Below, in pieces: positions 1,826 through 63,600 of a DNA stretch of 64,000 nt (positions are counted from its first letter, which is position 1; each line of letters starts with the position of its first letter). Made by a program: the position numbers and the translations under genes. The stretch is from Patescibacteria group bacterium UBA4787 (GTDB taxonomy: Bacteria > Patescibacteriota > Patescibacteriia > UBA2591 > UBA4787), in assembly GCA_002402995.1 (NCBI GenBank), contig DHGX01000003.1:82309-146308 (forward strand). Reading direction: 5' to 3'. The notes under the pieces were generated by a model that was not told where the DNA came from, searched no databases, and was given only the letters and a program-made list of their open reading frames with translations.

Positions 1826-1888
1826 GAACGAATTATGAATTAGGAATATAGAATTAGGAATATGGAAGTTTTTAAATTCTATATTCTA

Positions 1889-1942
1889 CCCCGAACCACG
1901 CCGGGTTCGGGGTAGCCCAGCACCCTACGTGGTGCTGGGCTA
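1889..1942. repeat. REP-like GC-rich double-hairpin element, copy 1 (ccccgaaccacgccgggttcgggg + tagcccagcaccctacgtggtgctgggcta).
   Basis: Two perfect hairpins read directly from the sequence. Near-identical copies lie at 48258-48311 (same orientation) and 60227-60280 (inverted). Confidence 0.8.
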
Positions 1943-1982
1943 AATTCTAGATTCTACTTTCTATTTTCTAACTTCTAATTTC

Positions 1983-2543: not shown

Positions 2544-2593
2544 TCTGCTTAACAAAATATTTTTTAATATAATTGAAATGGCAAGTAGTTAGC

Positions 2594-2813: not shown

Positions 2814-2825
2814 TTTTTTAAATTA

Positions 2826-2860
2826 AAAAGCGGTATGATATTTTCATACCGCTTTATTAT
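2826..2860. terminator. Bidirectional intrinsic terminator hairpin (agcggtatga-tatt-ttcataccgct) followed by a T-run.
   Basis: Perfect 10-bp stem plus U-tract, lying between the tRNA region and the 3' end of the minus-strand peptidase gene. Confidence 0.6.
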
Positions 2861-2940
2861 TAAGTGAGCGAGTGAAGTGAAAAATGAAGTTTTTCATTTC
2901 CGAGCGAGTGCTGATAACACAGGGTAACGCCCTTTATTTT

Positions 2941-4197: not shown

Positions 4198-4534
4198 AGG
4201 TCTATCTCCTTTTGTATTTTTTGATTTTTAATGATCTAATAATTTAATTTTAGCAGAAAATTAGCATTTTGTCAACCCCGCCTAAATTTTAAATAACCGT
4301 TTTTAAATAAATTTCATAGCGTGTTTTGTGAATACCAGCCCTTGTTTCTAATAGAAATACTATATTAAAATTTGGGCGGGTAGGGAGGAAAAGTTGCGTG
4401 AATTTTTGACGAAAAGGTTATTTTTAGTAGTATTATTAATACTAATCATAACTATATTCTCTTTGAGTTTTAGGTTTTAGGCTTTAAGTTTTATATTTCA
4501 AGTTTTGACTTCTATTTTCTACTTTCTATTTTCC

Positions 4535-4600
4535 CCCGACGCTTTGGTCGGGATCCTCGATTTCTTTATCAAATCAAAAGATTTGGAAGAAATCGGGATA
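4535..4600 (+). promoter_or_regulatory. Conserved 65-nt two-hairpin leader element, copy 1 (cccgacgctttggtcggg + cgatttctttatcaaatcaaaagatttggaagaaatcg). It ends about 12 nt before the rarA ATG.
   Basis: A near-identical copy sits at 48318-48383, directly upstream of the radical-SAM activase start. Both hairpins are perfect or near-perfect. Confidence 0.6.
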
Positions 4601-4612
4601 AATTCTAAGCGT

Positions 4613-5923: not shown

Positions 5924-6012
5924 GCAGGCGGGCCTGCCGGATAAATTGCGAGACCGCAAATATTATCAACCCAAAATTAAGAGTTTAAAATCATAAACCA
6001 TATTTTTAATTT

Positions 6013-6666: not shown

Positions 6667-6755
6667 AAACTTTTCAATTTTTGTTTTTATGATATACTTA
6701 ATCTTTAATTCGTAATTTATTTGTTTTCTAGCTTCTACTTACTATTTTCTAACTC

Positions 6756-7106
6756 ATGAACCCCGAACATTGGGAAGATATAATTGGAAAAATAAAAGAC
6801 AAATTTAACGATGCTGTCCACGTTAAAGAAGATTTTGTGATTGAAGAAAATAATATGGGGGAAAAAATTATGGGCGAGATGGAAAGGATTGAATTTACGT
6901 CGCCTGTCGGTAAAATTCGTCTGGAAAAAATTAAAAAACCAGCGATTTTGGGTAAACGCCTTTTATATTCTAACCGGATAGGCAGTGAGACAAAAGTCGA
7001 CCGCGTTTACTCTAATGAAGACATGGTTGAGCATATAAATATCTATCGTTTGAATGAAACAGAGAACGAGTGGATTAAATTAGACGAGCACAATTTGTCT
7101 CTTTAA
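6756..7106 (+). CDS. Hypothetical protein.
   Basis: 116-aa ORF preceded by the TTCTA-type upstream motif. No recognisable domain. Confidence 0.5.
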   Translation: MNPEHWEDIIGKIKDKFNDAVHVKEDFVIEENNMGEKIMGEMERIEFTSPVGKIRLEKIKKPAILGKRLLYSNRIGSETKVDRVYSNEDMVEHINIYRLNETENEWIKLDEHNLSL

Positions 7107-7150
7107 ATTTTGTTTCTTAGTTCGTAATTCTACTTTCTACTTTCTAACCT

Positions 7151-9237: not shown

Positions 9238-9295
9238 TCGCTTTACGCTTTACGCTTTACGCTTTTCGCTTTTCGCTTTACGCTTCGCGCTTCGT
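9238..9295. repeat. Tandem heptamer repeats (CGCTTTA/CGCTTTT/CGCTTCG), about 8 units.
   Basis: Read directly from the sequence. Similar TTTACGCTTT-type tracts recur at 16421-16470, 18320-18360, 50850-50880 and 63481-63540, always in intergenic spacers. Confidence 0.8.
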
Positions 9296-18247: not shown

Positions 18248-18394
18248 TATTTATCAGAATTAGTAAATATATATAAATAAGTATTTTTGTTCTTTTTAAT
18301 CTTCATGTTTCATGCTTTTCTGTTTTACGCTTTTCGCTTTACGCTTTTCGCTTCATGTGCTAACTAATTAATTAACCCCCGCGGATAAAATTAA

Positions 18395-27784: not shown

Positions 27785-27925
27785 ACCAGGTAGTAGAAAT
27801 TTGATTAGTTTTATTATTTAATTTCATAACAAAAATAAATATTGGATTATTCATGGTCAGTATAACGTAAATTACACTTCCTTACCAGTAGAAATAAATA
27901 TATCAAATTTTCACTACCTGGCATA
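27783..27925 (-). repeat. Inverted-repeat bracket element, copy 2 (inverted). Its right-end repeat terminates in the RuBisCO start codon (ggtATG).
   Basis: On the minus strand it reads ATGCCAGGTAGTGAAAATTT...ATCAAATTTCTACTACCTGGTATG, followed by caaaaagc. The terminal ATG is the rbcL start at 27782-27784. Confidence 0.7.
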
Positions 27926-28053
27926 AATTTTATTTTTAGATTAATTTTAAGCTAATTACATTATATTATTTTTCTCAATAATATTCAACCTTGTTTTAAG
28001 TTGGCAAAAAGAGATTTCCATTGTTTAGTTTATTAAAAAATACGAAAAAATCA

Positions 28054-28108
28054 AACACCTAGAATCAAAAAAGCCAGCTAAAAGCTGACTTTTTTCTGCA
28101 AAAGGGTC
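28054..28108. repeat. Repeated terminator-like module, copy 1 (aatcaaaaaagccagc-N-gctgacttttttctgcaaaagggtcg). On the minus strand it is a stem-loop plus T-run.
   Basis: Copies also lie at 28992-29040, 29384-29445 and 39140-39208. The last abuts the 3' end of tRNA-His. Confidence 0.7.
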
Positions 28109-28889: not shown

Positions 28890-29106
28890 AAATTTCTATA
28901 TTAACTGACTAAAGATAGGTTAATATATATTAACCTATTAGTCAATGGTTAATATGTGGATAAATAAACGTAAATTCACTATCGACCGCCAATACGTCAA
29001 AATCAAAAAAGCCAGCCATGGGCTGACTCTTCTGTAAAAAAATGGCAAGAAAACTGATATGAAAAAAGACGAGCTTATTATCGCTCGTCTTCAATTTTTG
29101 ACGCAC

Positions 29107-29307: not shown

Positions 29308-29460
29308 TTGGGAACTCCTTTGTTTTATTTGTTGTTCAATGAACTTAATTCGGTTAAATAAATCTTAATAAAAAAATCGTTTTTTGTCAAGATGATAAAA
29401 TCAAAAAAGCCAGCTATTAGCTGACTCTTCTGTAAAAGGGTCGTATCGCTGCCGAGATGT

Positions 29461-39063: not shown

Positions 39064-39194
39064 GTTTATCTCCCATTATTAAATTTTATTTCAATGAACT
39101 AGGTTTAGCTATAAATAAAATATATCAAAAAATCATTTTTTGTCAAGATGATAAAATCAAAAAAGCCAGCTTTTGGCTGACTCTTCTGTAAAAG

Positions 39195-39267
39195 GGTGGC
39201 TAACGGGATTTGCACCCGTGCTGAAGGTTCCACAGACCTCCGTGCTAACTATTACACCATAGCCACC
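39195..39267 (-). tRNA. tRNA-His, anticodon GTG, with the extra 5' G(-1).
   Basis: Minus strand reads G-GTGGCTA-TG-GTGT-AATAGTTA-GCAC-G-GAGGT-CTGTGGA-ACCTT-CAGC-ACGGG-TGCAAAT-CCCGT-TAGCCAC-C. G(-1) pairs with the C73 discriminator, as characteristic of tRNA-His. The T-loop is slightly atypical. Confidence 0.7.
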
Positions 39268-40244: not shown

Positions 40245-40285
40245 ATATTAGAAAATAGAAAGTAGAAAGTAGAAAATAGAATAGG

Positions 40286-40903
40286 TTAAAATTTGACTTG
40301 CGGGACGCCTTTTTCTTCTTCTTCGGCTTGAAAGAATTCTTTTTTAACGAAATTAAGCATTTTAGCGAATATATTAGTGGGAAAAACGCTAATTTTTATG
40401 TTTAGATCACGGACATTACTGTTGTAAAATCGTCTGGCTGCTTGAATCTTATTTTCTGTATCAGACAGCTCGTCTTGGAGCTTCAAGAAATTTTGGCTGG
40501 CCTTTAAGTCAGGGTAATTTTCGCTTACAGCGAACAGGGATTTTAAGGTGCTAGTTAAAATATTTTCCGCTTGAGATTTGTCCTGGATTGTTTGCGCTTG
40601 CATAGCTTGGCTGCGAGCCAAGGTCACTTTTTCAAAAACATCTTTTTCGTGTTGGGCATAACCTTTGACTGTTTCAATTAAATTAGGGATTAGATCATAC
40701 CTTCTTTTTAATTGAACATCAATATCGGACCAGGATTCTTCGGTTCTAATTTTTGACCTCACCAGACTATTATAAATGGAAATAACCCACAAAAGAAATA
40801 GAACAATAACACTTAGCACAACATAAAGCACGGTAGACATAGATTTTACAATTAATAAATTAAACACAATTTTAAATTTTATCCCAAAAAACCGATTTGT
40901 CAA
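40286..40903 (-). CDS. lemA: LemA family protein. The start is probably the internal Met near 40840.
   Basis: LemA signature: N-terminal TM helix then SWSDIDVQLKRRYDLIPNLIETVKGYAQHEKDVFEKV. Confidence 0.8.
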   Translation of the reverse strand: MTNRFFGIKFKIVFNLLIVKSMSTVLYVVLSVIVLFLLWVISIYNSLVRSKIRTEESWSDIDVQLKRRYDLIPNLIETVKGYAQHEKDVFEKVTLARSQAMQAQTIQDKSQAENILTSTLKSLFAVSENYPDLKASQNFLKLQDELSDTENKIQAARRFYNSNVRDLNIKISVFPTNIFAKMLNFVKKEFFQAEEEEKGVPQVKF

Positions 40904-40979
40904 CCCCGTAGAATAATTTTGAGTTTAAGGCAAAGCCTTAAAAAGATATTTTCTCAAAATTCTCTACGGGGCTTCGTCC

Positions 40980-42875: not shown

Positions 42876-42884
42876 ATTTATATA

Positions 42885-43217
42885 TGCCGGGTAGTGAAAA
42901 TTCGATAGCTTGACGATTATGTTCTATTATGTTTATGTTTTGCAAAGTTTAAAAAATGATACATTATATATAGGCTTTACTGAAAATCTCAAAAAGAGAT
43001 TTCAAGAACATAATCGTGGCCTTAATTTTTCCACCAAAACGTTCAAGCCATGGAAATTGATTCATTACGAGGCTTATCTCAATGAAAAAGACGCCCGCCG
43101 CAGAGAAAAATATCTAAAAACCAGCCAAGGTTCACGCCTGTTGAAACGCATGCTCAAAGAATATTTTTACAACAATAAATTAAAATATATTTAATCGAAT
43201 TTCTACTACCCGGTATG
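42885..43217 (+). mobile_element. Inverted-repeat bracket element, copy 3. It carries a GIY-YIG nuclease-family ORF, and its right-end repeat supplies the start codon of the downstream NYN gene.
   Basis: Left end TGCCGGGTAGTGAAAATCGAT, right end ATCGAATTTCTACTACCCGGTATG. The GIY-YIG ORF fills the interior exactly. Confidence 0.55.
42910..43194 (+). CDS. GIY-YIG nuclease superfamily protein (small URI-domain protein).
   Basis: YYVYVLQSLKNDTLYIGFTENLKKRFQEHN contains the GIY...YIG motifs plus conserved Arg/Glu. About 91-94 aa. The true start is probably MFYYV, 9 nt inside the track start. Confidence 0.75.
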   Translation: MTIMFYYVYVLQSLKNDTLYIGFTENLKKRFQEHNRGLNFSTKTFKPWKLIHYEAYLNEKDARRREKYLKTSQGSRLLKRMLKEYFYNNKLKYI

Positions 43218-45161: not shown

Positions 45162-47435
45162 ATGTTAAAACAATTTGAGACAGAATTTAATGGCAGGAAG
45201 TTAATCGTTAAAACCGGCGAATGGGTTGGCCAAGCTAATGGCGCTTGCACGGTCCAATACGGCGAAACGGTTGTTTTAGCCACGGCCGTGATGGGGAAAG
45301 AAGATCGCGAAGGCGTAGACTTTCTTCCTTTAACCGTAGAATATGAAGAGCGTTTTTACGCAGCCGGAAAAATAAAAGGTTCAAAGTTTATTAAACGCGA
45401 AACTCGGCCGCCAGACGAAGCTATTTTAGCTGGTCGTTTAATCGACAGGCCTATCCGTCCTTTATTCAATCAAGAAACGCGCCGCGAGATTCAGGTTGTC
45501 AATACCGTTCTTTCTTTGGATCAGGAGAACGATCCTGATATTATTGCTTTATACGCGACGAGTTGCGCTTTAGCGATCTCTGATATCCCTTGGGAAGGGC
45601 CGGTGGTCGGCGTGCGCGTTGGCCGCGTTGACGGGCAATTAATTATTAATCCGACTTATGCCCAGCGCCTTACCAGCGATTTAGATTTGGTGGTGGCCGG
45701 AACCGGCGATAGGATTTTAATGCTTGAAGCCGGCGCCAAGGAAATTCCCGAAGATCAAATGTACGAGGCGATGGACGCAACTAGGAAAGAAATAAAACAA
45801 TTAATGGAATTCTTTAATAAAATACGAAAAGAAATAGGAAAAACTAAAGCCGTGATAGAGAAAAAAACAGATGAATCTTCGCCAACTGACGAGGAATTAA
45901 AAAAGTTGGCGGAAGATTTTGTGGAAGAGCGCGGAGACGATTATTTATTTAAGACATTCTTAAAAGTAAAAGAGCAGCGGACTGGCGCGGCCGAGGCCTT
46001 AAGCCACAAGATAGACGAGATGTTGTTAGAAAAAGGTGTTGGCAAAGATCGCCGCGGCAAAATTTATAACTATGTTCATAGTCTTATTTATAAAGCGGTT
46101 GGCCGGAAAATTCTAGAGAAAGGCCAGCGCATCGACGGCCGCGCCTTAGACGAGATTAGGCCTTTGGCTACAGCGGTTCATGTTTTACCGCGTCCGCACG
46201 GTTCAGCGGTATTTTCCCGCGGCGAAACGCAAGTTCTGGCAACTGTTACCTTGGGCGCGCCCGGTATGGAGCAATATTTAGACACTATGGAAGAAAGCGG
46301 CCGCAAGCGTTTTATGCATCATTATAATTTTCCGCCTTATTGCAGCGGAGAAGTTAAACCATTAAGGCAAACCGGCAGGCGAGAAACAGGCCACGGCGCT
46401 TTGGTGGAAAGGGGTATCGCCGCCATTATTCCGGACCAAGACATTTTTCCTTATACTATTAGAGTCGTATCCGAAGTTTTATCTTCAAACGGTTCGACTT
46501 CAATGGCTTCTTGTTGCGCTTCGATGCTATCTTTGATGGACGCGGGCGTGCCGGTTAAAAATATCGTAGCCGGCGTGGCCATCGGTTTAGCTTCGGAAGA
46601 AGTAGACAAGGAAATGAAGCGTTATAAAGTTTTTACCGACTTGCAAGACCTGGAAGACGGTCCGGGCGGTATGGACTTTAAGGTAATCGGTTCCAATAAA
46701 GGCATTACCGCGATTCAAATGGATACTAAAACTTACGGCCTGACTTTTGATATTATCCGCGACGCGTTATCAGCGGCTAAAAAAGGCAGAGAAGATATTT
46801 TAGGAATTATTACCGCCGAATTAGCGGCTCCGCGAGCGGAACTGTCTACTTATGCGCCGAGAATCATTTCCTTTAAAATTGATATTGAAAAAATTCGCGA
46901 AGTTATCGGTCCGGGCGGTAAGGTTATTAATGGTATTATCGCTAAAACCGGCGCCACGATTGATATTGCTCAAGACGGCACGGTGGCAGTAACTTCTACG
47001 AATGGCGAGGGTATGGAAAAAGCCATTAATATGATTAAAGATATCGTGCGGGAAGTTGAAGTAGGGGAAGAATTTGAAGGCACGGTTACGAGAATACTTG
47101 ATTTCGGCGCTTTTGTGGAATTGATTCCCGGCACCGAAGGTATGGTTCATGTTTCGCAAATGGCCGCTGGCCGCACCGAACACCCGTCAGATGTTATGAA
47201 AATAGGCGACAAGGTCAAAGTCAAAGTTATTGAAAAAGACGAGAAGGGCAGAATCAATCTTTCAATGCGCGCTTTAATGAAAGACGAAAGCGGCAATCCT
47301 TTGCCGGAATTGCCGGCTCGCCCCGCAAGATCAAGTTTCGGCGGCGGGAGACCCCGTTTTGGCAGCCGAGGCGGCGATGATCGTGGCGGTAGTCGTGGCG
47401 GATTTCGGCCGCACCGAAAATCTTTTAATGACTAA
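45162..47435 (+). CDS. pnp: Polyribonucleotide nucleotidyltransferase (PNPase) with KH and S1 domains and an RGG-rich tail.
   Basis: Two RNase PH-like domains, a KH domain (GPGGKVINGI) and an S1 domain. The C-terminal Gly/Arg-rich tail is RPRFGSRGGDDRGGSRGGFRP. Confidence 0.92.
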   Translation: MLKQFETEFNGRKLIVKTGEWVGQANGACTVQYGETVVLATAVMGKEDREGVDFLPLTVEYEERFYAAGKIKGSKFIKRETRPPDEAILAGRLIDRPIRPLFNQETRREIQVVNTVLSLDQENDPDIIALYATSCALAISDIPWEGPVVGVRVGRVDGQLIINPTYAQRLTSDLDLVVAGTGDRILMLEAGAKEIPEDQMYEAMDATRKEIKQLMEFFNKIRKEIGKTKAVIEKKTDESSPTDEELKKLAEDFVEERGDDYLFKTFLKVKEQRTGAAEALSHKIDEMLLEKGVGKDRRGKIYNYVHSLIYKAVGRKILEKGQRIDGRALDEIRPLATAVHVLPRPHGSAVFSRGETQVLATVTLGAPGMEQYLDTMEESGRKRFMHHYNFPPYCSGEVKPLRQTGRRETGHGALVERGIAAIIPDQDIFPYTIRVVSEVLSSNGSTSMASCCASMLSLMDAGVPVKNIVAGVAIGLASEEVDKEMKRYKVFTDLQDLEDGPGGMDFKVIGSNKGITAIQMDTKTYGLTFDIIRDALSAAKKGREDILGIITAELAAPRAELSTYAPRIISFKIDIEKIREVIGPGGKVINGIIAKTGATIDIAQDGTVAVTSTNGEGMEKAINMIKDIVREVEVGEEFEGTVTRILDFGAFVELIPGTEGMVHVSQMAAGRTEHPSDVMKIGDKVKVKVIEKDEKGRINLSMRALMKDESGNPLPELPARPARSSFGGGRPRFGSRGGDDRGGSRGGFRPHRKSFND

Positions 47436-47453
47436 ATCTCGAAGCGAGAAGCA

Positions 47454-47580
47454 TGAATTACGAGAAAATAGTCCCGATTAGTACAAAAACTAAAAGTTTT
47501 TGTTTACTAATCGAGGATCCACGATTTTGGAGCCATCGCAAAGCGATGGACAAAATCGGGAAAAGTAGTAAGTAGAAAGT
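47454..47580 (+). repeat. 127-bp perfect direct repeat, copy 1 (copy 2 at 52793-52919). It contains two perfect hairpins and a 40-codon ORF (MNYEKIVPISTKTKSFCLLIEDPRFWSHRKAMDKIGKSSK).
   Basis: I read the two copies as identical over about 127 nt. They lie 3' of pnp and glmS respectively. The unit begins at an ATG and ends just after an in-frame TAG. Confidence 0.85.
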
Positions 47581-47766
47581 AGAATCCGCTCAGTTTACCC
47601 CGTAGCGACGCGTAGTGTCTGCTATTCGGGGCTGGCGGAGTAGGCGAGTAATTCCAAAATTCCCAGCCCAAGGCTGGTCCGCCTCTGGCGGAAAAAATAA
47701 ATTTTTACTGCAGGGATAGAAAAAGGACACAGATTTTTTCTGTGCCCTTTTTTGTTTTGGCGATTA

Positions 47767-47979
47767 TTAACGACTATTCCGACTCCCGATGATGAAGTAG
47801 ATGATACCGACGATAATACCACCGACAATACCGCCAACAACATTACCGACAATACCGCCAACAACATTACCAACAACACTACAGGCGATGATGCCGATGA
47901 TGCCGAGGATGATGCCGATGATGCCGCCACGGACGATCTGGACGAATAAGACCAGGGTGATGTAGTCGATAAGGTTCAT
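47767..47979 (-). CDS. Small Gly/Ile/Val-rich hydrophobic membrane protein (70 aa) encoded partly by tandem 24-nt repeats.
   Basis: GGAG-type RBS about 8 nt upstream of the ATG, and a conserved terminator immediately downstream. The repeated peptide unit is GNVVGGIV. The overlapping + strand acidic ORF was rejected. Confidence 0.5.
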   Translation of the reverse strand: MNLIDYITLVLFVQIVRGGIIGIILGIIGIIACSVVGNVVGGIVGNVVGGIVGGIIVGIIYFIIGSRNSR

Positions 47980-48257
47980 GGAAGTTTTCTCCGTTTGTTG
48001 TTATTTAAAGAACTGTTAATGCTTGATTTGATTTAAGATAATTGTAATAAATTTTGACGATTTTGTCAACCCCTCACATGGGAATGATTAAGGAATTTAA
48101 TATATTTTTCCTTTGATATATAAAACAAAAACCAAGAATCTATTTAAAATAAAAAGCGTCTTTCTCTACAAAGACAAAACATATCGTTCCCATGTGAGGG
48201 GCTTCGTTCATTTGCCATCGATGATTTTTCTTATTATAATTATTTTTCATTATTCTA

Positions 48258-48311
48258 CTCCGAACCACGTCGGGTTCGGGGTAGCCCAGCACCCTACGTG
48301 GCGCAGGGCTA
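48258..48311. repeat. REP-like double-hairpin element, copy 2.
   Basis: Reads ctccgaaccacgtcgggttcgggg + tagcccagcaccctacgtggcgcagggcta, directly followed by leader-element copy 2. Confidence 0.8.
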
Positions 48312-48317
48312 ACTTCT

Positions 48318-48383
48318 CCCGACGCCTTGGTCGGGATCCTCGATTTCTTTACCAAATCAAAAGATTTGGAAGAAATCGGGATA
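48318..48383 (+). promoter_or_regulatory. Conserved two-hairpin leader element, copy 2, ending about 12 nt before the radical-SAM gene ATG.
   Basis: Near-identical to 4535-4600. Confidence 0.6.
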
Positions 48384-48394
48384 TATTCTATTTT

Positions 48395-49099
48395 ATGTTT
48401 TTCCGCGGTTGGCAAAAACAATCTTTAATTGAATGGCCGGGTAAAATTTCAACGGTTGTTTTTATGGGTGGATGTAATTTTTCATGTCCTTGGTGTTATA
48501 ACCGAGACTTAGTTTTAAACAGCGAATATCTGCCCAAAATTTTCGAAGAAGAAATTTTAGAATATTTGAATAAAAATAAAGATTTTTTGGACGCCTTGGT
48601 GGTGACCGGCGGAGAACCGACGCTTTGCGGCGACAGCGGTGATTTGTGGCTGTTTTTTGAAAAAATTAAAAAAGCGGGATTTTTGGTTGGGTTGGAGACA
48701 AACGGCACTTATCCGAAGATTATTGAAAAATTATTAAAAAATAAATTAATAGATTATTTAGCTATGGATATAAAGGCGCCGTTAAATCATGAAAAATATG
48801 ATCAACTCGCCGGCGCGGAAATTAATTTAGAGGACATTAAGAAATCAATTAGTTTGATCAAAGGATCTGATATTGATTATGAGTTTCGCACGACCGTTGT
48901 CCCCGGACTGTTAACTGTTGACGATATTAAAAAAATAGCGCAGGAAATAAAAGGAGCTAATCGTTATGTTCTGCAAAAATTTCGTTCCGAAAACAGCTTG
49001 TTAGCCGGAGATAGAACACCCGAAAATGCTCAAGAATTAGACCTTAACGCGTTAGCGAAAAAAATTGATCCACTTGTCAAATGTCTAATTCGGGCTTAA
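48395..49099 (+). CDS. Radical SAM activating enzyme, anaerobic ribonucleotide reductase activase (NrdG)-like.
   Basis: Cysteine motif GGCNFSCPWCYN and a glycine-rich SAM-binding segment VVTGGEPTL. Start set to the ATG at 48395, because the upstream part of the track ORF translates repeat elements. Confidence 0.65.
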   Translation: MFFRGWQKQSLIEWPGKISTVVFMGGCNFSCPWCYNRDLVLNSEYLPKIFEEEILEYLNKNKDFLDALVVTGGEPTLCGDSGDLWLFFEKIKKAGFLVGLETNGTYPKIIEKLLKNKLIDYLAMDIKAPLNHEKYDQLAGAEINLEDIKKSISLIKGSDIDYEFRTTVVPGLLTVDDIKKIAQEIKGANRYVLQKFRSENSLLAGDRTPENAQELDLNALAKKIDPLVKCLIRA

Positions 49100-49107
49100 A
49101 ATTATTA

Positions 49108-49160
49108 TCAAGCGAGCGAGCGAAATAAAAATTTTATTTTTATTTCCGAGCAAGCGCAGA
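49108..49160. repeat. GAGCGAG-flanked AT-palindrome element (aagcgagcgagcg-aaataaaaattttatttttattt-ccgagcaagcgc), copy 2 of 3 (others at 2866-2915 and 57885-57940 inverted).
   Basis: Read directly. All copies lie just past the 3' ends of genes. Confidence 0.7.
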
Positions 49161-49229
49161 TATCAAAAGGTTTAATACCTTTTATCTTAAGAGTTCATTA
49201 AAACAATCAACAGAAAGGGGGTGGCGATC

Positions 49230-49658
49230 ATGTCTCGAGGTCTTTATTATCAGACATACGGTAAAAGACTGGATAAGATGGAGCTGTATCGGTGGCTGGC
49301 CAAAATTTTTAAGCTTCTGAGAAGCGGCAAGCTTGTGGTCATTTTCCCTGATCGCCGGACTATCGCTGCCAATGAACGCATACTTCCGGGCAGCAAAAGA
49401 AAGAAGCCGCCACATTTCTTCGGTGATGCCACAGACAAAGAGACGAGCAAGAAAATTATTCGTCTCAATCCTTATCGGCGCGGATTCTTCAATAGCTTGC
49501 TTCACGAATGTCTTCATCTGGTCGCGCCCGACATGCCGCACGCGTTAATTTATCGGCTTCCCGAAATGATGGTTAGGCAAATGACTTCGAGTCATTACGC
49601 CCGTTTACTAAAACTCTTGGCTCGCAATATCCGCTACCAGCCCAAAGTCAAAAAATAA
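49230..49658 (+). CDS. Hypothetical protein with an HExxH motif (HECLHLVAPDMPH), a possible small metallopeptidase-like protein, in a GC-rich island.
   Basis: Strong RBS aaagggggtg about 7 nt upstream of the ATG at 49230. Followed by a strong terminator at 49659-49694. G+C visibly elevated. Confidence 0.55.
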   Translation: MSRGLYYQTYGKRLDKMELYRWLAKIFKLLRSGKLVVIFPDRRTIAANERILPGSKRKKPPHFFGDATDKETSKKIIRLNPYRRGFFNSLLHECLHLVAPDMPHALIYRLPEMMVRQMTSSHYARLLKLLARNIRYQPKVKK

Positions 49659-49762
49659 AAGGCGGTTCAAGGAAATACTTGACCGCCTTTTCATTTATTG
49701 TATTTTTTAAAAAAACTGGCATAATATTATCATAGAGAAAGGAAAAATTAATATTATAAAAA

Positions 49763-50858
49763 ATGCTTAAAGACTTAATCAACAAATTGGAAATTCTAAA
49801 AGAACGTTTTTCCAAGACACAGGGGTTTCTTTGACTTCTCTAAAATCAGAAAAGAAATTATTGATTTAGAAGAAAAGTCGGCCGAAATCAATTTTTGGCA
49901 AAATCCACCCGAAGCAGAGAAAATAATGAAACGACTAGGCGGTCTTAGAGAGAGTCTGGCCAAATGGGAATCATTAGAGAAGAACATCAACGATCTTTTA
50001 GAGGTTGCTCATTTAGATAACGAAGATGCCAGTGTTTCTTTGCGTCCGGAAATAGAAACAAAAATTATTGAATTAGAGAAAGAATTGGTTAAAATGGAGC
50101 TCCTGATTTTTTTGGGAAAGAAATACGATAAAAGCGACGCGATTTTATCAATTCATGCCGGTACCGGCGGGGTGGATGCTCAAGATTGGGCGGAAATGCT
50201 TTTGCGCATGTATCTTAGATTCGCGGAAAAACGAGATTGGCAAGTCAAGATTGTAGAAATCAGCGCTGCTTCGGAAGCAGGCATTAAAAGCGTTACACTT
50301 GAAATATCAGGCGATTACGCTTATGGAAATTTGAAAGGCGAGGCAGGAGTTCACCGCTTAGTGCGCATTTCACCTTTTGACTCGGAAAAGATGCGACACA
50401 CTTCATTCGTCTTAGTGGAAGTGATTCCGGAGATAGAAGACGCGAAAATAGAGATTAAACCGGATGATATAAAAATTGACACATATTTATCTTCCGGCGC
50501 GGGTGGACAAAATGTTCAAAAAGTGGAAACTGCCGTCAGGATTACTCATTTGCCGAGCAGGATTTCGGTAAGTTGCCAAAGCGAACGTTCGCAACATCAA
50601 AATCGTGAACGCGCCATGAAAATTTTGCAGGCCAAACTTTATCAATATTATGAAGCGAAAGTAGAGGCCGAGAGGGAAAGATTGCGCGGCGAATATAAAA
50701 GCGCTTCATGGGGCAATCAGATTCGTTCTTATGTTTTGCAGCCGTATAAAATGGTTAAAGATCATCGGACGAATTACGAAACCAGCGATATTCAAAAAGT
50801 TTTAGACGGATATTTAGATGAATTTATAGAAAGTTATCTTAGGGAGCGTAAAGCGTAA
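49763..50858 (+). CDS. prfB: Peptide chain release factor 2, with a programmed +1 ribosomal frameshift at CTT TGA C (49829-49835).
   Basis: ORF1 MLKDLINKLEILKERFSKTQGFL ends at TGA 49832-49834. It is preceded by the internal SD-like AGGGG and followed by C, the canonical RF2 autoregulatory site. The +1 frame continues into the RF2 body (SPFDSEK..., GGQNVQKVETAV). Confidence 0.9.
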
Positions 50859-50937
50859 AATGCAAAGCGTAAAACAACAGCGTAAAATTTAAAATTTATT
50901 TTTTACTTTTAACCTTTAATTTTTAACTTTTAAAAAT

Positions 50938-52776
50938 ATGTGCGGAATAGTTGGTTATATCGGCAAAGATGATGGCACAGAAATCTGCCTTAAAGGATTA
51001 AAAAGGTTAGAATATCGCGGTTATGATTCGGCTGGTATGGCGGTTGTTGATAATCAAGAAATTAAATCTATAAAGGTTAAGGGCAGGGTGGCGGCTTTAG
51101 AAGAGAAACAAAAAAATAATCCGCTTAAGGGATCGCTTGTTATTGCTCATACGCGTTGGGCAACGCATGGCGTGCCTTCAGAGGAAAACGCGCACCCGCA
51201 TTTCGATTGTCATAAACAGTTCGCGATTGTCCATAACGGCATCATTGAAAATTACGCGAGCTTAAAAAGGTGGTTAGAAGAAAAAGGCCATAAATTTACT
51301 TCTCAAACCGACACAGAAGTTATCCCGCATTTGATCGAAGATTATTACGAAGGGGATTTGGTCGCTACTGTGCAAAAAGTTTTGTCTTTAGTGGAAGGAA
51401 CTTATGGATTGGCGATTATTTCCGCGAAAGAACCCGACAAAATGGTGGCGGCGCGCTGCGGCAGTCCTTTAATTCTCGGCATTTGCGATAACGGCGATTA
51501 TATTGTGGCTTCTGACCCCACAGCCGTGGTTGAATACACGCGCAAGGTCGTTTATTTAAATGACCGCGAAGTGGTTGTTTTAAATCATGGGAGTTATCAA
51601 ATTTTTACTTTAGACAACAAAGAAGTGGAGCGCGAGACAAGTGAGATCGCCTGGGATCTGGCGCAGATTGAAAAAGGCGGTTTTCCTCATTTTATGTTGA
51701 AAGAAATTTTTAATCAGCCGGATACTGTAAGCAACGCGATGCGCGGCAGAATTATTTTAAGCGAGAATAGGGTGAAGCTCGGCGGTTTGATTGATTATCT
51801 GGATTCTCTGGCGAAATCAGAAAGAATAGTTTTTGTGGCTTGCGGCACAAGCTGGCACGCCGGTTTAATCGCAGAATACCTTTTTGAAAATTTAGCCAGT
51901 TTGCCGACCGAAGTAGAATACGCTTCGGAATTTCGTTATAAGGGCTCAATCGTCAACACCGACACGCCCTATTTTGTAATCAGTCAATCAGGCGAGACAG
52001 CCGATACTTTGGAATCTCTACGTAAGGTTAAAAGCGCGGGCGGAAAAGTTTTCGGTATTGTGAACGTGGTGGGTTCAACTATTGCCCGCGAAACCGACGC
52101 AGGCATTTATTTGCACGCCGGACCGGAAATCGGCGTGGCTTCAACTAAGGCCTTTACTTCACAGGTGACGGTTTTATCCTTGCTGGCTTTGTATTTAGCG
52201 AAAGCGCGAGGAAAAATGTCTGATGAAGATATGCAGGCCAGGCTTAATTCGGTTTTAGCTTTGCCTAAAATTATTGAAAAGATTTTGAAAAACGCCGATT
52301 CCATTAAAAATATCGCGGAAAGATACATCAAATATAATAATTTTCTTTATTTGGGACGAGGCTATAATTTCCCGGTGGCTTTAGAGGGCGCCTTGAAGCT
52401 TAAAGAAATTTCCTATATCCACGCCGAAGGCTATCCGGCCGCGGAAATGAAACACGGCCCGATTGCCTTAATTGATCAAAATATGCCGGTTGTGGTTGTC
52501 GCCACGGACACCGAAGATATAATTTATCAGAAAGTGATGAGTAATATTGAAGAGGTCAGGGCGCGCGGCGGAAATATTATCGCCATCGCCACCGAAGGGA
52601 ATGAAGACATTAAAAATTTCGCCACCGAAGTTATTTATGTTCCCAAAACCGCCGGTTTTATTTCGCCGATTGTTAATGTTATCCCGCTTCAACTGTTATC
52701 TTATTATATGGCCGCGGCCAGAGGATGCGACATTGATAAGCCGAGAAATTTGGCCAAATCAGTTACTGTGGAGTAG
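50938..52776 (+). CDS. glmS: Glutamine--fructose-6-phosphate aminotransferase.
   Basis: N-terminal MCGIVGYIG glutaminase nucleophile and two SIS domains. Confidence 0.92.
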   Translation: MCGIVGYIGKDDGTEICLKGLKRLEYRGYDSAGMAVVDNQEIKSIKVKGRVAALEEKQKNNPLKGSLVIAHTRWATHGVPSEENAHPHFDCHKQFAIVHNGIIENYASLKRWLEEKGHKFTSQTDTEVIPHLIEDYYEGDLVATVQKVLSLVEGTYGLAIISAKEPDKMVAARCGSPLILGICDNGDYIVASDPTAVVEYTRKVVYLNDREVVVLNHGSYQIFTLDNKEVERETSEIAWDLAQIEKGGFPHFMLKEIFNQPDTVSNAMRGRIILSENRVKLGGLIDYLDSLAKSERIVFVACGTSWHAGLIAEYLFENLASLPTEVEYASEFRYKGSIVNTDTPYFVISQSGETADTLESLRKVKSAGGKVFGIVNVVGSTIARETDAGIYLHAGPEIGVASTKAFTSQVTVLSLLALYLAKARGKMSDEDMQARLNSVLALPKIIEKILKNADSIKNIAERYIKYNNFLYLGRGYNFPVALEGALKLKEISYIHAEGYPAAEMKHGPIALIDQNMPVVVVATDTEDIIYQKVMSNIEEVRARGGNIIAIATEGNEDIKNFATEVIYVPKTAGFISPIVNVIPLQLLSYYMAAARGCDIDKPRNLAKSVTVE

Positions 52777-52792
52777 GACGGAAGCATGGAGC

Positions 52793-52919
52793 ATGAATTA
52801 CGAGAAAATAGTCCCGATTAGTACAAAAACTAAAAGTTTTTGTTTACTAATCGAGGATCCACGATTTTGGAGCCATCGCAAAGCGATGGACAAAATCGGG
52901 AAAAGTAGTAAGTAGAAAG
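52793..52919 (+). repeat. 127-bp perfect direct repeat, copy 2.
   Basis: Identical to 47454-47580. Confidence 0.85.
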
Positions 52920-53057
52920 TAAAATAAAGCGTGAAGTTTGTTTCTGGGAGGTCGCACTCTCTGAGGGTGCGACCTCTAAAAAATAAATCTTTATATCAAA
53001 TTTTTACTATGGTAATAGAAAAAGGACACAGATTTTTTCTGTGTCCTTTGAGCGATC

Positions 53058-53826: not shown

Positions 53827-53969
53827 TTATTGTTTTACAATTATATATCGTATGAAGCGCGCGCGTAGCTTGTAGTATTGACGAGGTTTTGGTTTGCGAG
53901 TTTTACGCTTCAAGAATTTAATAACTTTATTCTTAACTCTAAATTTTACTTTCTACTTTCTAAATTCTA

Positions 53970-54674
53970 ATGTTGACTCAACGACAAGAAAAGATTTTAA
54001 ATTTAATTATTGAAGAATATATTCGGACCAGCCAGCCGGTTGGCTCGGAGTTTTTGGCTAAACGCTTAGGCAAGATTTCGCCGGCCACTATTAGAAATGA
54101 AATGACGGCTTTAACTCAAGATAATTTTTTAGTTCAGCCCCATACTTCGGCCGGACGCGTTCCTTCAGAATCGGCCTATCGCTATTATTTAGATCATTTG
54201 AAAATCAAAGAGAGGCCGTCGCCGGAAATTAATTTTTGGAAAAATCTTTTATCAAAAAACAAACACGAATCAAAAGATTTAGTTTTAAAAAAAATAGCCA
54301 AAGAAATGGCGAACGCGACCGAAGAGGCAATTTTGCTCGCTTTTGACAAAAATGATTATTATTATACCGGATTCACCTTTCTTTTCGGCCAGCCGGAATT
54401 CGCCGATCTTAAATTAATCCATCGGTTTTCCGAAGTCATTGATCGAGCTGATGAAGTTTGGGGAGAATTTTTGCCTTCCATAAACCGCAAAGAACTGCAG
54501 ATATTTTTGGGAGAAGCCTGTCCTTTCGGCCGGGCATGCAGTTTAATTACTGTTCCCACGGATTTCATTGGCAATCGGCAGACAGTTATTAGTTTATTAG
54601 GTCCGATGCGAATGAATTACAATAAGAATATTGCCTTGATGAGAAATTTGAAGGAAATGTTAAATAAAATATAA
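53970..54674 (+). CDS. hrcA: Heat-inducible transcription repressor HrcA.
   Basis: N-terminal winged-helix region LTQRQEKILNLIIEEYIRTSQPVGSEFLAKRLGKISPATIRNEM, adjacent to CIRCE and grpE. Confidence 0.85.
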   Translation: MLTQRQEKILNLIIEEYIRTSQPVGSEFLAKRLGKISPATIRNEMTALTQDNFLVQPHTSAGRVPSESAYRYYLDHLKIKERPSPEINFWKNLLSKNKHESKDLVLKKIAKEMANATEEAILLAFDKNDYYYTGFTFLFGQPEFADLKLIHRFSEVIDRADEVWGEFLPSINRKELQIFLGEACPFGRACSLITVPTDFIGNRQTVISLLGPMRMNYNKNIALMRNLKEMLNKI

Positions 54675-55675: not shown

Positions 55676-55785
55676 AAACTGTTATGTGGTATGTTTATAT
55701 TTTATTTAGTAAAAAGACAACTCATTAGTATATTGGCTCGACCAAAGATTTGAGAAAAAGAATTTAAATAAAACAAAAATATATG

Positions 55786-55927
55786 CCAGGTAGTGAAAAT
55801 TCGATAGTGCTTTTGCTTCATTCCATTGCCCGGTCTCATCATTAATAAAATAACCAATTCTTTGCTTCCAGCGTGTTTCTTAATAATCACACTTTAAGAA
55901 GCATCGAATTTCTACTACCTGGTATGG
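55786..55927 (+). repeat. Inverted-repeat bracket element, copy 4, in the dnaK leader. Its right end reads ggtATGgcaaaataa, which is a 3-codon ORF.
   Basis: Left end ATGCCAGGTAGTGAAAATTCGAT, right end ATCGAATTTCTACTACCTGGTATG. Confidence 0.75.
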
Positions 55928-60211: not shown

Positions 60212-60226
60212 ATTAAATATAGAATT

Positions 60227-60280
60227 TAGCCCTGCACCACGTGGGGTGCTGGGCTACCCCGAACCCGGCGTGGTTCGGGG
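60227..60280. repeat. REP-like double-hairpin element, copy 3 (inverted), acting as the dnaJ 3' hairpin region.
   Basis: Reads tagccctgcaccacgtggggtgctgggcta + ccccgaacccggcgtggttcgggg. Confidence 0.8.
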
Positions 60281-60424
60281 TAGAAAATAGAATTTTTTGA
60301 TTTGACATTTTCGTTAAAATCTATTACCGTTTAACATAGATCATTACAATTCCTGTTTAATTCTTCGCAAACAGCGAAGGATTATTTAACAGGACAAATA
60401 ACAAACCAAAAGGAGGAACTGCTC

Positions 60425-61168: not shown

Positions 61169-61651
61169 AGCTTCGGCAAGGCAAGCCTGCCTACGCTAAA
61201 GCTTCGGCAAGGCAGGCTTGTGGGAGTTAAGGAAATTTGGTTTTTGGCCTTTGGAAAATTGGAAAAGCCCCAACACAAAAAGTGTTGGGGCTTCTTTTTT
61301 TCTGAATTCGGCGTATTATGAAAATTAGGTTAATGCATCCTAAATCATAGTTTAGCCATAATTTATGAGCGAGGACGTCAAACAAAAGTCTTCTTTTGAT
61401 TTGACTCCGAACGAAGAAATTTCAAGCTTCGCTTATAATTTTGAACATGATTTGGCCTTGTTTTGAATTAAAGGTTTGCTATAATTGGTGAGCGGAGGAA
61501 CAGGCAAAAAGAATTTTTGTCTGATTCCGTAGCGAGCCAATTTCACTCGCGAAGCGAGTATAATAAAAACACCAATCTACGCTTTTATTTTTTTGTTTAT
61601 TTTTATTCGCAATTCTACATTCTATCTTCTAATTTCTAATTTCTACATGGT

Positions 61652-63480: not shown

Positions 63481-63600
63481 AATCTTGAAACTTGAAGCGC
63501 GAAGCGCAAAGTGAAAAGTGCAAAGCGAAAACCGTAAAACTCAAAAGTTCAGGTCAATTTTCAATTTCCAATTATCAATTTGAGCTTTAAATTATTATCC

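Follow-up and report, generated by a model that had tools for sequence, protein, structure and literature searches.

Among described systems, the REP/BIME/REPIN sequences are short extragenic imperfect palindromes, often arranged as inverted doublets, which exist in many gene-less copies beside a rare single gene bracketed by the same palindromes and may be located in 3′ UTRs. The element described here, represented by a repeat behind pnp and glmS in the window (the whole 64-kb stretch of DNA that was analysed), resembles them in all of these respects. It differs in its associated protein, a GIY-YIG nuclease instead of the IS200/IS605-like tyrosine (Y1 HUH) transposase RAYT, in lacking the GTAG/CGTC head, its foot being (G)TCCCGA, and in having a core conserved across phyla, whereas REPs are species-specific; moreover, the stems of its copies within one genome differ by compensatory changes, unlike those of REPs. 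Assignment to REP/REPIN with RAYT was rejected, as no repeat-flanked Y1 (HUH) gene was found and GIY-YIG was the sole enriched family among the matches listed.

The repeat is also reminiscent of MITEs in being short and gene-less, with inverted termini GTCCCGATT / AATCGGGAC (terminal inverted repeats GTCCCGATT..AATCGGGA(C)) and no coding capacity, its one ORF being judged spurious, in sharing its ends with larger ORF-bearing relatives, and in a presence that varies between close relatives. Unlike MITEs, it has no DDE transposase, and instead of a pair of terminal repeats around unrelated DNA, the element is built throughout as a palindrome made of palindromes; no target-site duplication was seen for the unit, whose empty sites lie in heptamer arrays. 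Like the present element, the Rickettsia palindromic elements (RPE) are small palindromic selfish DNA that can land in genes for RNAs as well as at or within protein-coding ones; they are lineage-restricted, their sequences are unrelated to this element, and we know of no nuclease associated with them. Integron attC sites are comparable in conserving structure while sequence varies, in their extrahelical bases and in their DNA-level function; this candidate was rejected because neither the unit nor its surroundings contain the R''/L''..L'/R' boxes with the GTTRRRY core. Attc-like spaced repeats do enclose the element in some Ignavibacteriota (L069), where it is nested inside them and is not itself such a site.

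GIY-YIG homing endonucleases (Seg proteins, I-TevI) share with the element a GIY-YIG catalytic domain and a selfish lifestyle, and one of them, T4 SegB, has its gene within a cluster of tRNA genes that it also targets (PMC2330249). These enzymes have DNA-binding domains and long recognition sequences, whereas the protein found here is a ~80-aa catalytic domain only, its gene is embedded in a hairpin, and many ORF-less copies accompany it; a classical GIY-YIG homing endonuclease gene was rejected since PF01541 alone, and no sequence-specific DNA-binding domain, was found. The associated nuclease belongs to the prokaryotic stand-alone Slx1-like/UPF0213 (COG2827) proteins, a family so far viewed as probable repair enzymes of unknown role (PMC1564403). 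Full-text searching of a collection of papers returned no link of Slx1-like/UPF0213 proteins to hairpin repeats, gene-bracketing inverted repeats, or tRNA-gene insertions. The reading preferred here, to which a probability of roughly 0.7 is given, is that the repeat is a non-autonomous, MITE-like, gene-less copy of a GIY-YIG-associated selfish hairpin element.

The repeat behind pnp and glmS

Exact-match extension confirmed the identity of the two copies and lengthened it from the 127 bp of the first-pass annotation to 132 bp, with 47450-47581 in the pnp 3′ region equal letter for letter to 52790-52921, which lies 5340 positions further on in the 3′ region of glmS. Weaker similarity reaches 47441-47585 around copy 1 (repeat family D2). 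The pnp ORF (Pfam: RNase_PH/KH/S1) ends at 47435 and the glmS ORF (GATase/SIS) at 52776, so that the block begins 13-14 nt past each stop and not about 20 nt after it, as had been read. In copy 1, 22 nt of heptamer array precede the 90-nt double hairpin and 20 nt of AAAGTAG heptamers follow it, and the identity of the two copies runs ~20 nt past the hairpins into the heptamer arrays. TAGAAAGTAGAA is located at 47573-47584, the counterpart at copy 2 being TAGAAAGTAAAA, and AAAAGTAG stands 3′ of the 132-bp unit.

The ggacacag terminator noticed near both copies is present downstream of copy 1 at 47725..47744 and again at 53024..53043 (terminator scan and comparison with L216) and is bidirectional, but it lies outside the mobile unit as a pre-existing orthologous feature, because the orthologous L216 sites carry the terminator without the unit. 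The unit was rejected as an intrinsic terminator of its own (GC-rich hairpin plus T-run), the scan placing the terminator at 47728-47744, outside it.

L216 and L218 are syntenic relatives of 89-90% nucleotide identity. The unit is absent after pnp in both and after glmS in L216, where a heptamer array and a solo mini-hairpin, TGTCCCGACGAGTCGGGAT, are found. The unit is thus a polymorphic insertion, and the absence from these relatives, together with the identity of the copies, bears out the original proposal that duplication or gene conversion took place very recently. At neither insertion of the unit can a target-site duplication be seen; as the flanks are heptamer arrays, the empty sites of L216 and L218 do not allow a base-by-base alignment. 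The extension of identity into the arrays fits gene conversion as well as transposition.

Two abutting hairpins and their family

The two "perfect hairpins" first recognised exist, in copy 1 as CAAAAACT-AAA-AGTTTTTG at 47484-47502 and CCATCGC-AAA-GCGATGG at 47533-47549, but they are the tips of two longer adjacent hairpins of 44-46 nt. A module scan and folds place hairpin A, TCCCGATTAGTAC..GTTTACTAATCG(A)GGA, at 47472..47517 (copy 2, 52812-52857), with a one-base bulge 3 bp from its foot, and hairpin B, TCC(A)CGATTTTGG..ACAAAATCGGGA, at 47518..47561 (copy 2, 52858-52901), the first and second of these tips being their apical stems. The hairpin feet meet in a central near-palindrome, AATCGAGGATCCACGATT (47509..47526; copy 2, 52849-52866), which is conserved family-wide with the consensus AATCGAGGATCCTCGATT.

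Folding of the unit as DNA gave -29.3 kcal/mol (z = -8.5), and folding as RNA gave -44.5 kcal/mol for the + strand (z = -7.7) and -43.4 for the - strand. The core is dyad-symmetric, with TCCCGA..TCG(A)GGA abutting TCC(N)CGA..TCGGGA, and the element as a whole consists of four feet, one 8-9-nt motif in alternating orientation: TCCCGAtt..aaTCG(A)GGA followed directly by TCC(T)CGAtt..aaTCGGGA. Owing to this alternation, each strand by itself can form both hairpins, and a cruciform or four-way junction could be extruded from the duplex. Both copies have the four alternating feet (47472-47561 and 52812-52901), with A replacing T at one bulge, and they follow the family pattern of two hairpins that directly adjoin, are bulged by a single base 3 bp above the foot and fold equally on both strands.

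The family was delineated here by scanning species-representative reference genomes for part of the core, GGATCCTCGATT-N15-45-AATCGGGA. This yielded at least 120 loci, against a back-of-envelope chance expectation of ~34 matches; among the matches listed, most are from Patescibacteria of many classes, with further ones from WOR-3/Stahlbacteria, Ignavibacteriota and Bacteroidota, and L031, L035, L039, L079 and L124 are likely to be chance matches. Outside the search pattern, the first hairpin of the matches listed has a TCCCGA(T) foot in 37/62 and TCGAGGA in 43/62. Stem positions in these matches are 60-94% Watson-Crick with 3-4 pair types, compared with 32-52% when partners are shuffled, and the lower stems are ~98% Watson-Crick; the 850 pairs examined there include 7 G·T and 8 A·C, with no G·T excess on either strand. 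Taken with the equal folding of the two strands, this pattern points to a constraint that acts on the element at the DNA level.

The stems covary between members, and this includes the unit itself: L021, an element in another genome and a different gene context, matches it with 95% identity across 102 nt, and of the four positions at which it differs, two make up a compensatory pair in a stem. Members occur in either orientation, upstream of genes, within tRNA genes and at ORF ends, frequently in loop-coding parts of tRNA genes, where they adjoin partial tRNA duplications.

GIY-YIG genes nested in the hairpins

Clustering of the ORFs over the core-scan loci revealed small GIY-YIG proteins as the sole enriched family (15/120 among the matches listed). 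A GIY-YIG coding sequence lies directly upstream in 6 of the 140 listed matches, and the ORF sits physically within the hairpin loop in L015, L078, L042 and L055. The protein is a stand-alone Slx1/UPF0213-like GIY-YIG nuclease of ~80 aa with PF01541 only, a TIGR01453 match being below cut-off; the catalytic-motif residues are invariant throughout the alignment, and among solved structures, those of UPF0213 proteins and SLX1 come closest. When the analysis was begun from the protein, core-encoding C-terminal read-through peptides were found in 9 of the best 19 homologues, and 5/5 loci of four homologous proteins, in differing gene contexts, had the same architecture, TCCCGA-arm/ATG..ORF..arm-TCGAGGA abutting (T/C)CCTCGA..TCGGG. 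Among small GIY-YIG loci selected by protein, a significant inverted repeat brackets the ORF in 36/77.

The ORF-bearing partners that share the ends of the unit (L015, L078, L126, L127, L206, L208, L213 and L215) are all from other genomes. In the last four, the arms, the ORF and the second hairpin co-occur as a set at differing gene contexts, and the 3′ arm of the hairpin is the conserved C-terminal coding sequence of the ORF itself, pairing with sequence just 5′ of its ATG. Both observations argue against an alternative in which the element would be mobile or recombinogenic without GIY-YIG, through host recombination at palindromes, an unseen transposase or slippage and conversion of heptamer arrays, and the GIY-YIG genes would be independent loop-homing parasites. 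The enrichment of GIY-YIG, and of no other family, near elements among the matches listed also speaks against this alternative, which we consider unlikely, although the ORF can occupy either hairpin loop (L054 vs L015), other GIY-YIG subtypes have quite different flanking repeats, and the identity of the copies continues into the heptamer arrays. It is also in keeping with this alternative that the nuclease gene of the TCCCGA-associated subtype was not found in the 64-kb window plus ~17 kb of flanks from the same genome (~80 kb); the two GIY-YIG genes present there are of another subtype with different terminal repeats. The preferred reading draws support, on the other side, from a GIY-YIG gene of another subtype in the window (42919-43194): compared with L216 it has been cleanly inserted, it is accompanied by 20-bp inverted repeats and a duplicated TATG, and a gene-less 137-bp derivative at 55786-55922 shares both its ends and the TATG duplication. 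The GIY-YIG gene might instead be a secondary parasite with a mere preference for hairpin loops.

In the preferred reading, that of a gene-less copy of a GIY-YIG-associated element, complete family members carry the gene for the ~80-aa stand-alone (Slx1/UPF0213-like) nuclease within the loop of one hairpin. Acting in trans, this structure-specific nuclease would nick hairpin or cruciform DNA, and host repair or replication would then copy the element to new sites, typically the loops of other DNA hairpins, for example those of further elements or of the D, anticodon and T arms of tRNAs. The unit of the present genome would have been inserted into heptamer-repeat arrays behind the stop codons of pnp and glmS, with one copy arising from the other very recently, either by fresh insertion or by gene conversion via the similar arrays. 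Against this explanation count the negative search for a cognate nuclease gene in the ~80 kb, the lack of a visible target-site duplication and the integration step, for which it has no account: GIY-YIG enzymes are hydrolytic nucleases, and we know of no strand-transfer activity among them.

To our knowledge, stand-alone Slx1/UPF0213-type nucleases are among the most widespread bacterial families without known function. A wider proposal, to which we give slightly less than even odds, is that they drive an unrecognised class of mobile element whose gene lies in a hairpin loop and which spreads together with gene-less swarms and attacks other hairpin loops, including those of tRNA D, anticodon and T arms, where repair would leave partial tRNA duplications; the repeat behind pnp and glmS would then belong to the gene-less derivatives. 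If true, this would provide a concrete, testable role for the small genes annotated as "GIY-YIG nuclease family protein" in Patescibacteria, Bacteroidota and numerous further phyla, would account for a class of hairpin repeats between genes, as well as for pseudo-tRNA fragments and breaks in assemblies, in the highly reduced genomes of Patescibacteria, and would add a nuclease-only, structure-guided element to the bacterial mobile DNA repertoire. Its conservation across phyla also makes the motif a simple marker by which such elements can be found.

RNA, peptide and artefact readings

The location of the unit between stop codon and terminator at both genes makes it probable that it is co-transcribed with pnp and glmS, and REP-like hairpins are known to protect upstream mRNA. 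These points and the high stability of the RNA fold favour a functional RNA, either a 3′UTR-derived sRNA, as suggested in the first-pass annotation, or a structure that stabilises or processes the two mRNAs, its identity being kept by selection. Such a role is nevertheless improbable, given that the same loci lack the unit in relatives of ~90% identity (L216, L218), that the family occurs in either orientation, upstream of genes, in tRNA genes and at ORF ends, and that the element combines dyad symmetry and equal folding of the strands with the balance of G·U-type and A·C pairs described above. The Rfam 15 covariance models gave no match over the unit at E<=10 and none in six element loci at E<=1, and the sRNA suggestion is left unsupported. 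An exapted secondary effect of the unit on mRNA decay is possible, and in the pnp and glmS 3′ UTRs it may act as an exonuclease block. As a selfish copy, the unit would be a large passenger structure in the 3′ UTRs of the pnp and glmS mRNAs of this strain, missing in close relatives.

The 40-codon ORF (47453..47575; copy 2, 52793-52915; + strand) reads as first described, save that the ATG of the first copy is at 47453 and not at 47454, and its ATG..TAG frame, encoding the 40-aa peptide MNYEKIVPISTKTKSFCLLIEDPRFWSHRKAMDKIGKSSK, is intact in both copies. That it is a small-protein gene is nonetheless highly improbable: the start codon belongs to the flanking heptamer array and not to the conserved element, L021 has no ATG, and its substitutions, including the compensatory stem pair, are not of coding type. 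The stem sequences of other family members are unrelated, so that unrelated peptides would be encoded, and the public assembly has no gene call at the site. IEDPRF and KIG are the translated DNA core, which is read in several contexts and recurs as the read-through tails of GIY-YIG proteins, and the ORF is judged a spurious by-product of palindrome translation. If the preferred reading is right, the locus cautions against annotating this ORF or proposing an sRNA.

Despite perfect identity in metagenome-derived sequence, an assembly or binning artefact duplicating one segment is practically excluded, as both full copies with differing flanks are also present in the independent ENA assembly L001, homologous elements are found in many genomes, and contigs of five other assemblies break within the unit (those of four other samples stop 30 or 87 nt into it, and JGI contig L221 begins within copy 2), as is expected of a true repeat.

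Repeat families and the module scan further revealed a shorter related element, D5, in two copies on the + strand. The second (48309..48390; module 48337-48381) lies upstream of a radical-SAM gene, where D5/D6 is absent in the close relative L216, and is 93% identical to the first. The first (4526..4607) combines a short first hairpin, CCCGACGCTTTGGTCGGG, with a second one of canonical form, TCCTCGATT..AATCGGGA, at 4554-4598; it lies within a TTCTAnn heptamer array immediately 5′ of a rarA-like (MgsA) start codon and is 88% identical to L093.

The exact repeat and its insertion behind pnp and glmS

Match extension established an exact identity of 132 bp between positions 47450-47581 and 52790-52921 (offset 5340), the unit starting 13-14 nt past the stop codons of the ORFs at 45162-47435 and 50938-52776, which are assigned to PNPase and GlmS on the basis of the RNase_PH/KH/S1 and GATase/SIS domains of their products. 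Looser similarity within the repeat family that contains the unit (D2) spans 47441-47585, and the 132-bp block opens with ~20 nt of GAAGCNN-like heptamers and closes with a similar length of AAAGTAG heptamers. The first-pass annotation had described an identical repeat of 127 bp; the identity was borne out over this longer block, with the start of the first copy off by one (its ATG lies at 47453), and the 40-codon frame, the TAGAAAGTAGAA tail and the ggacacag terminators downstream were all recovered. The two perfect hairpins noticed at that stage exist, but merely as the tips of two longer, adjacent hairpins, which occupy 47472-47517 and 47518-47561 in copy 1.

The predicted fold of the unit in single-stranded DNA has an energy of -29.3 kcal/mol (z = -8.5), with a one-base bulge 3 bp above the foot of each hairpin. 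The feet represent one motif in alternating orientation, TCCCGATT..AATCG(A)GGA followed by TCC(A)CGATT..AATCGGGA, so that the unit centre, AATCGAGGATCCACGATT, is a near-palindrome. Since the outermost feet are also mutually complementary, the unit would be capable of an alternative four-way, cruciform-like pairing.

Two syntenic relatives retrieved via the pnp protein cluster, L216 and L218 (L numbers denote comparison loci), share ~89-90% nucleotide identity with the window in the surrounding genes and reveal an insertion polymorphism among close relatives; relatives of this lineage stem from the Hainich groundwater samples H41/H43. In L216 the ggacacag terminator lies ~25 nt past the pnp stop and behind glmS come a heptamer array and one isolated hairpin of 16 nt (TCCCGACGAGTCGGGA), while in L218 pnp is followed by heptamers and AT-rich sequence; the unit is absent from all three places. 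On this comparison the unit is evidently an insertion, and the ggacacag terminator at both window sites is orthologous, pre-existing and outside the repeat. No target duplication is visible at the unit sites relative to L216 and L218, and the 132-bp identity reaches into the heptamer arrays; window copy 2 may be either an insertion or the product of gene conversion between similar arrays.

The window holds further elements of this kind. A shorter relative of the unit, D5 (4526-4607 and 48309-48390, + strand), lies inside TTCTAnn arrays directly upstream of start codons and shares GGATCCTCGATT-N28-AATCGGGA with the unit, its upper stem differing in a compensating manner. A second double-hairpin repeat, D6, is present in three copies of 90-95% identity (1877-1948, 48246-48317 and, on the minus strand, 60216-60295) and reads CCCCGAACC..GGTTCGGGG plus TAGCCCAGCACC..GGTGCTGGGCTA with TTCTA heptamers on its flanks. 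Upstream of the radical-SAM gene of L216, D5 and D6 are both missing. The D6 foot, CCCGA/TCGGG, resembles that of the main family, whose double hairpins have the feet TCCCGA..TCG(N)GGA|TCC(N)CGA..TCGGGA. Between unit copy 1 and the terminator, ~115 nt of additional hairpins were noted at 47586-47700 (CCCCGTAGC..GCTATTCGGGG, CCAGCCCAAGGCTGG and CCGCCTCTGGCGG), and these are likewise missing in L216 and L218.

More generally, the intergenic regions of the window are rich in 7-nt tandem arrays into which hairpin elements are inserted (examples at 1940-1982, 4510-4533, 7128-7146, 40249-40281, 53929-53970 and 61611-61648, and also at 9239-9292, 18306-18353, 50845-50931 and 63502-63531). TTCTAnn arrays reach up to many start codons and arrays of the GAAGCGN or TTTACGC type come after stop codons; comparable arrays (CAAATTC and similar) stand beside hairpin elements in WOR-3 genomes.

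Nuclease genes nested in the hairpins

The reading that we prefer, with a probability of roughly two in three, is that the 132-bp repeat belongs, as a non-autonomous copy, to a mobile double-hairpin family associated with GIY-YIG nucleases and was copied not long ago from one of the heptamer arrays that follow pnp and glmS to the other. When all ORFs of 80 aa or more from the 120 listed loci were clustered, a single family recurred in many loci (15 of the 120), its proteins being mostly 80-100 aa long and matching Pfam GIY-YIG only. Among solved structures, UPF0213 proteins (BH0048 and EF2693) and SLX1 come closest to them; they belong to the stand-alone Slx1-like group of Dunin-Horkawicz et al. 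(PMC1564403), and the GIY, YIG, Arg, His and Glu motif residues are invariant in the alignment.

Physical linkage of gene and hairpin was found for the subtype ..HNSGKVxSTK..QIKxWKSR..IEKL. In L015 and L078 the order is TCCCGA, arm, ATG..ORF..arm' and TCGAGGA, followed by TCCTCGATT..AATCGGGA, which places the gene in the loop of the first hairpin and leaves the second intact; in L054 a frameshifted GIY-YIG copy occupies the position of the first hairpin and the gene in the other loop is intact, and in L042 and L055 a C-terminus of the L015/L078 subtype continues into the core. GIY-YIG coding sequence lies directly upstream in 6 of 140 pattern hits among the matches listed, which implies that gene-less copies outnumber gene-bearing ones by ~20:1. 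With L078 protein as the query, a test free of DNA-pattern ascertainment, core-encoding C-terminal extensions were present in 9 of the 19 closest homologues (..KSRILDF, ..KIEDPRF..EIGT and ..SRGSSIS..EIGT). All five loci fetched for four of these homologues, in several different gene contexts, read TCCCGATTTTATAAATTTTAATTTTTCT-ATG..ORF..AGAAAAATTAAAATTT.ATAAAATCGAGGA and then the second hairpin. The conserved end of the ORF, which codes for the C-terminus (IEKLKFK), itself serves as the 3' arm of the hairpin and pairs with the sequence immediately 5' of the ATG; the nuclease gene is thus nested in the hairpin, and gene and hairpins move together as one unit.

In a wider protein-selected set of 80 metagenome loci the exact core occurred in the two closest only (L126 and L127), so the TCCCGA core marks one nuclease subclade rather than small GIY-YIG genes as a whole. 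In 36 of 77 protein-selected loci the ORF nonetheless stood between the arms of a significant inverted repeat, the types including ATTCCCGCGAAAGCGGGAAT, GTCATCCTGAGC..GAAGG and ACCCCGTTAGATA, which argues that the arrangement of a nuclease gene in a hairpin loop is general.

A mobile hairpin that spreads independently of GIY-YIG nucleases is a real alternative, although we consider it rather unlikely. In its favour, the ~80 kb of source genome covered by the window and its flanks contain GIY-YIG genes of other subtypes and none of the TCCCGA-associated one. On the other side stands the nesting of that subtype within the hairpin itself. Under the preferred, nuclease-associated reading, the nuclease would mobilise the element, acting in trans on gene-less copies. 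SLX1 is a structure-specific nuclease, and by analogy the substrate may be hairpin or cruciform DNA, with hairpin loops as the probable preferred targets.

Comparable elements of other subtypes are active in this genome. A 91-aa GIY-YIG gene at 42919-43194 (hmmsearch E = 1e-30) is enclosed by 20-bp inverted repeats at 42887-42906 (CCGGGTAGTGAAAATTCGAT) and 43194-43213 (ATCGAATTTCTACTACCCGG), with TATG on either side (region 42883-43217). L216 retains the uninterrupted junction rpsO-TAAATTATATATGAGCG-NYN (~5245-5262), an empty site at which the window reads ATATATG|CCGGGTAGTG..ORF..CACTACCCGG|TATGAGTG; to judge from this comparison, the gene-bearing element inserted cleanly and duplicated 3-4 bp (TATG). 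A gene-less 137-bp derivative with the same ends and TATG duplication lies at 55786-55922, just downstream of a GIY-YIG pseudogene with an in-frame stop (55684-55765), and a solo terminal repeat of the element lies at 27902-27921. A further GIY-YIG gene directly follows hisS, ~6.5 kb past the 3' end of the window (L221, 16990-17223). Two contigs, one from JGI and one from Logan, are interrupted at this gene or inside it, a sign that the family may have several copies in the source genome.

The many short palindromic copies and the rare copy bracketing a nuclease gene recall REP/REPIN-RAYT systems and MITEs. However, the GTAG/CGTC head and Y1 transposase of the former are missing here, as is the DDE transposase of the latter, and no target duplication is visible for the unit. 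Phage Seg homing endonucleases (PMC2330249) have the catalytic domain and the liking for tRNA genes in common with this family, which lacks their DNA-binding domains. The 2006 survey regarded stand-alone Slx1-like proteins as probable repair enzymes and left open whether further GIY-YIG members are 'molecular parasites' (PMC1564403). In a search of full-text papers of incomplete coverage, no description of the element turned up, nor any link between GIY-YIG genes and hairpins or mobile-element role for stand-alone GIY-YIG/UPF0213 proteins, and the motif string occurred in cloning primers only. We class the element among small palindromic mobile elements; its partner, a nuclease only, is unusual, and its core is conserved in several phyla.

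Conservation across genomes and constraint on DNA

Scanning one genome per species for GGATCCTCGATT-N{15,45}-AATCGGGA returned at least 120 stretches, against ~34 chance matches expected by our own estimate for such a pattern and database. Among the matches listed, the great majority are from numerous classes of Patescibacteria (Yanofsky-, Sung-, Azam-, Jorgensen-, Adler-, Buchanan-, Magasanik- and Dojkabacteria, Saccharibacteria and Paceibacterota), the others being from WOR-3/Stahlbacteria, Ignavibacteriota, Bacteroidota and a few Pseudomonadota; about five, in coding DNA, look fortuitous, and ~88% of the elements lie outside long ORFs. Features that the pattern does not fix recur among these listed matches, namely the upstream-hairpin foot TCCCGA(T) in 37 of 62 and TCGAGGA in 43 of 62, and in many genomes the pattern matches on both strands, a perfect dyad. 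A generic foot-plus-stem descriptor found 243 modules, six of them in the window, in 0.92 Mb of fetched loci and window, compared with 2 in shuffled sequence. Elements at the extreme 3' ends of genes provide the final codons and stop in L206, L078 and L213, and elements are nested in one another's loops in L213, L215, L013 and L036.

The stems covary. In the second hairpin, 75-92% of the pairs at stem positions 3-6 are Watson-Crick, of three or four types (shuffled-partner mean 0.52); in the first hairpin the share is 60-94% over the initial six positions, all of them left free by the pattern (shuffled-partner mean 0.32). By direct count the lower stems of the family are ~98% Watson-Crick, with 7 G·T and 8 A·C in 850 pairs. 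An RNA structure read off one strand tolerates G·U and not A·C, and such symmetry therefore suggests that the DNA, or each of the two strands, is under constraint. An apparent G·U strand bias (172 vs 56) in an MFE-based count was dropped as an artefact of differing MFE structures, the direct count of lower stems being without bias.

A dedicated small RNA, one of the readings that the first-pass annotation had proposed, or a cis-acting RNA is consequently disfavoured and appears improbable. The unit does fold as RNA, at -44.5 kcal/mol on the + strand and a similar -43.4 on the - strand; its stems, however, have the DNA-type symmetry, it is missing from relatives of ~90% identity, and Rfam contains no family matching the unit or six other element-bearing loci. 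REP elements influence 3' exonucleolytic decay, and one may speculate that the unit, as a mobile element resident in the pnp and glmS 3' UTRs, has a comparable effect.

The small-protein gene suggested from the 40-codon frame is very improbable. Another MAG (L021) carries, in a different neighbourhood (Lon protease and a coiled-coil hydrolase-like gene), an element 95% identical to the unit over 102 nt, which lacks the ATG for this ORF and of whose four substitutions two form a compensatory pair in the apical stem. An assembly artefact can be dismissed, as both complete copies are present in the independent ENA assembly L001, short-read contigs of four other samples end 30 or 87 nt inside the unit, and the JGI contig begins within unit copy 2.

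Two longer arrangements were observed in other genomes. L069 (Ignavibacteriota) carries six element copies at 740-1040 bp spacing (1738-6324), each the terminal structure of a longer conserved repeat ending in GTTAGGY, which resembles integron attC sites; such repeats are also seen in L007, L037 and L119. In the close relative L093, consecutive CCCGAC..GTCGGG hairpins run in frame through parts of tsaD and tsaE (~5340-5420 and 6218-6838) and encode peptides of the type ..SGQESRGSDR.., which suggests that hairpin elements are tolerated within coding sequence.

Elements at tRNA genes and further repeats of the window

Many elements lie in or beside tRNA genes at loop-coding positions, namely in the D-arm (L068, L060, L050, L108 and L077), in the anticodon arm after TTG (L068, L117, L073 and L127) and in the T-arm (L097). 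The usual order is a 5' tRNA fragment, the element with or without its ORF, and an intact tRNA, the ORF stop overlapping the start of the intact tRNA in L016, L074 and L097. A reading as tRNA introns or bulge-helix-bulge structures was rejected, since in silico excision (16 boundary variants per site) restored an ARAGORN tRNA once only (L096). Inspection revealed truncated 5' tRNA copies beside intact genes, and these elements look like insertions with partial target duplication.

Such truncated copies precede intact tRNA-Ala, -Ser, -Val and others (L068 1-440, L060 3700-4100, L127, L117, L073, L050 and L108). In these copies the D-loop is split precisely between G18 and G19 by a double-hairpin element, and the tRNA sequence breaks off behind TTG in the anticodon loop, at which point a further element starts that may or may not contain a GIY-YIG ORF; some of the 5' halves are no copies of the adjacent tRNA. 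In L077 (Bacteroidota, hit 5188-5249) an otherwise complete tRNA-Met(CAT)-like gene is interrupted by the double hairpin in the D-loop and by two mini-hairpins in the T-loop; no intact tRNA-Met copy is visible within 160 nt, and the gene may be either a pseudogene or one that is processed in some way. Pseudo-tRNA copies also occur downstream of small GIY-YIG genes adjoining tRNA-Leu or tRNA-Val in metagenome loci (L128, L129, L132-L134, L144 and L201), their anticodon or T stems swapped for (T)CCCGAT..ATCGGG(A) hairpins and their loops kept. As an idea only, the core might derive from a tRNA-Phe anticodon arm (TCCCGATTGAAAATCGGGA in L113).

Two other repeats were noted in the window. A motif ending in TTTTGTCAACCCC recurs at 4240-4279, 29355-29394, 40868-40907 and 48034-48073; its opposite strand reads GGGGTTGACAAAA-N-TACAAT, and 48069-48041 scores 11/12 as a putative sigma-70-like promoter for the minus-strand gene. 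A 74-nt segment in four copies of 65-95% identity (28032-28105, 28970-29043, 29368-29441 and 39124-39197) contains AAAAAAGCCAGC-loop-GCTGAC, a terminator-like hairpin.
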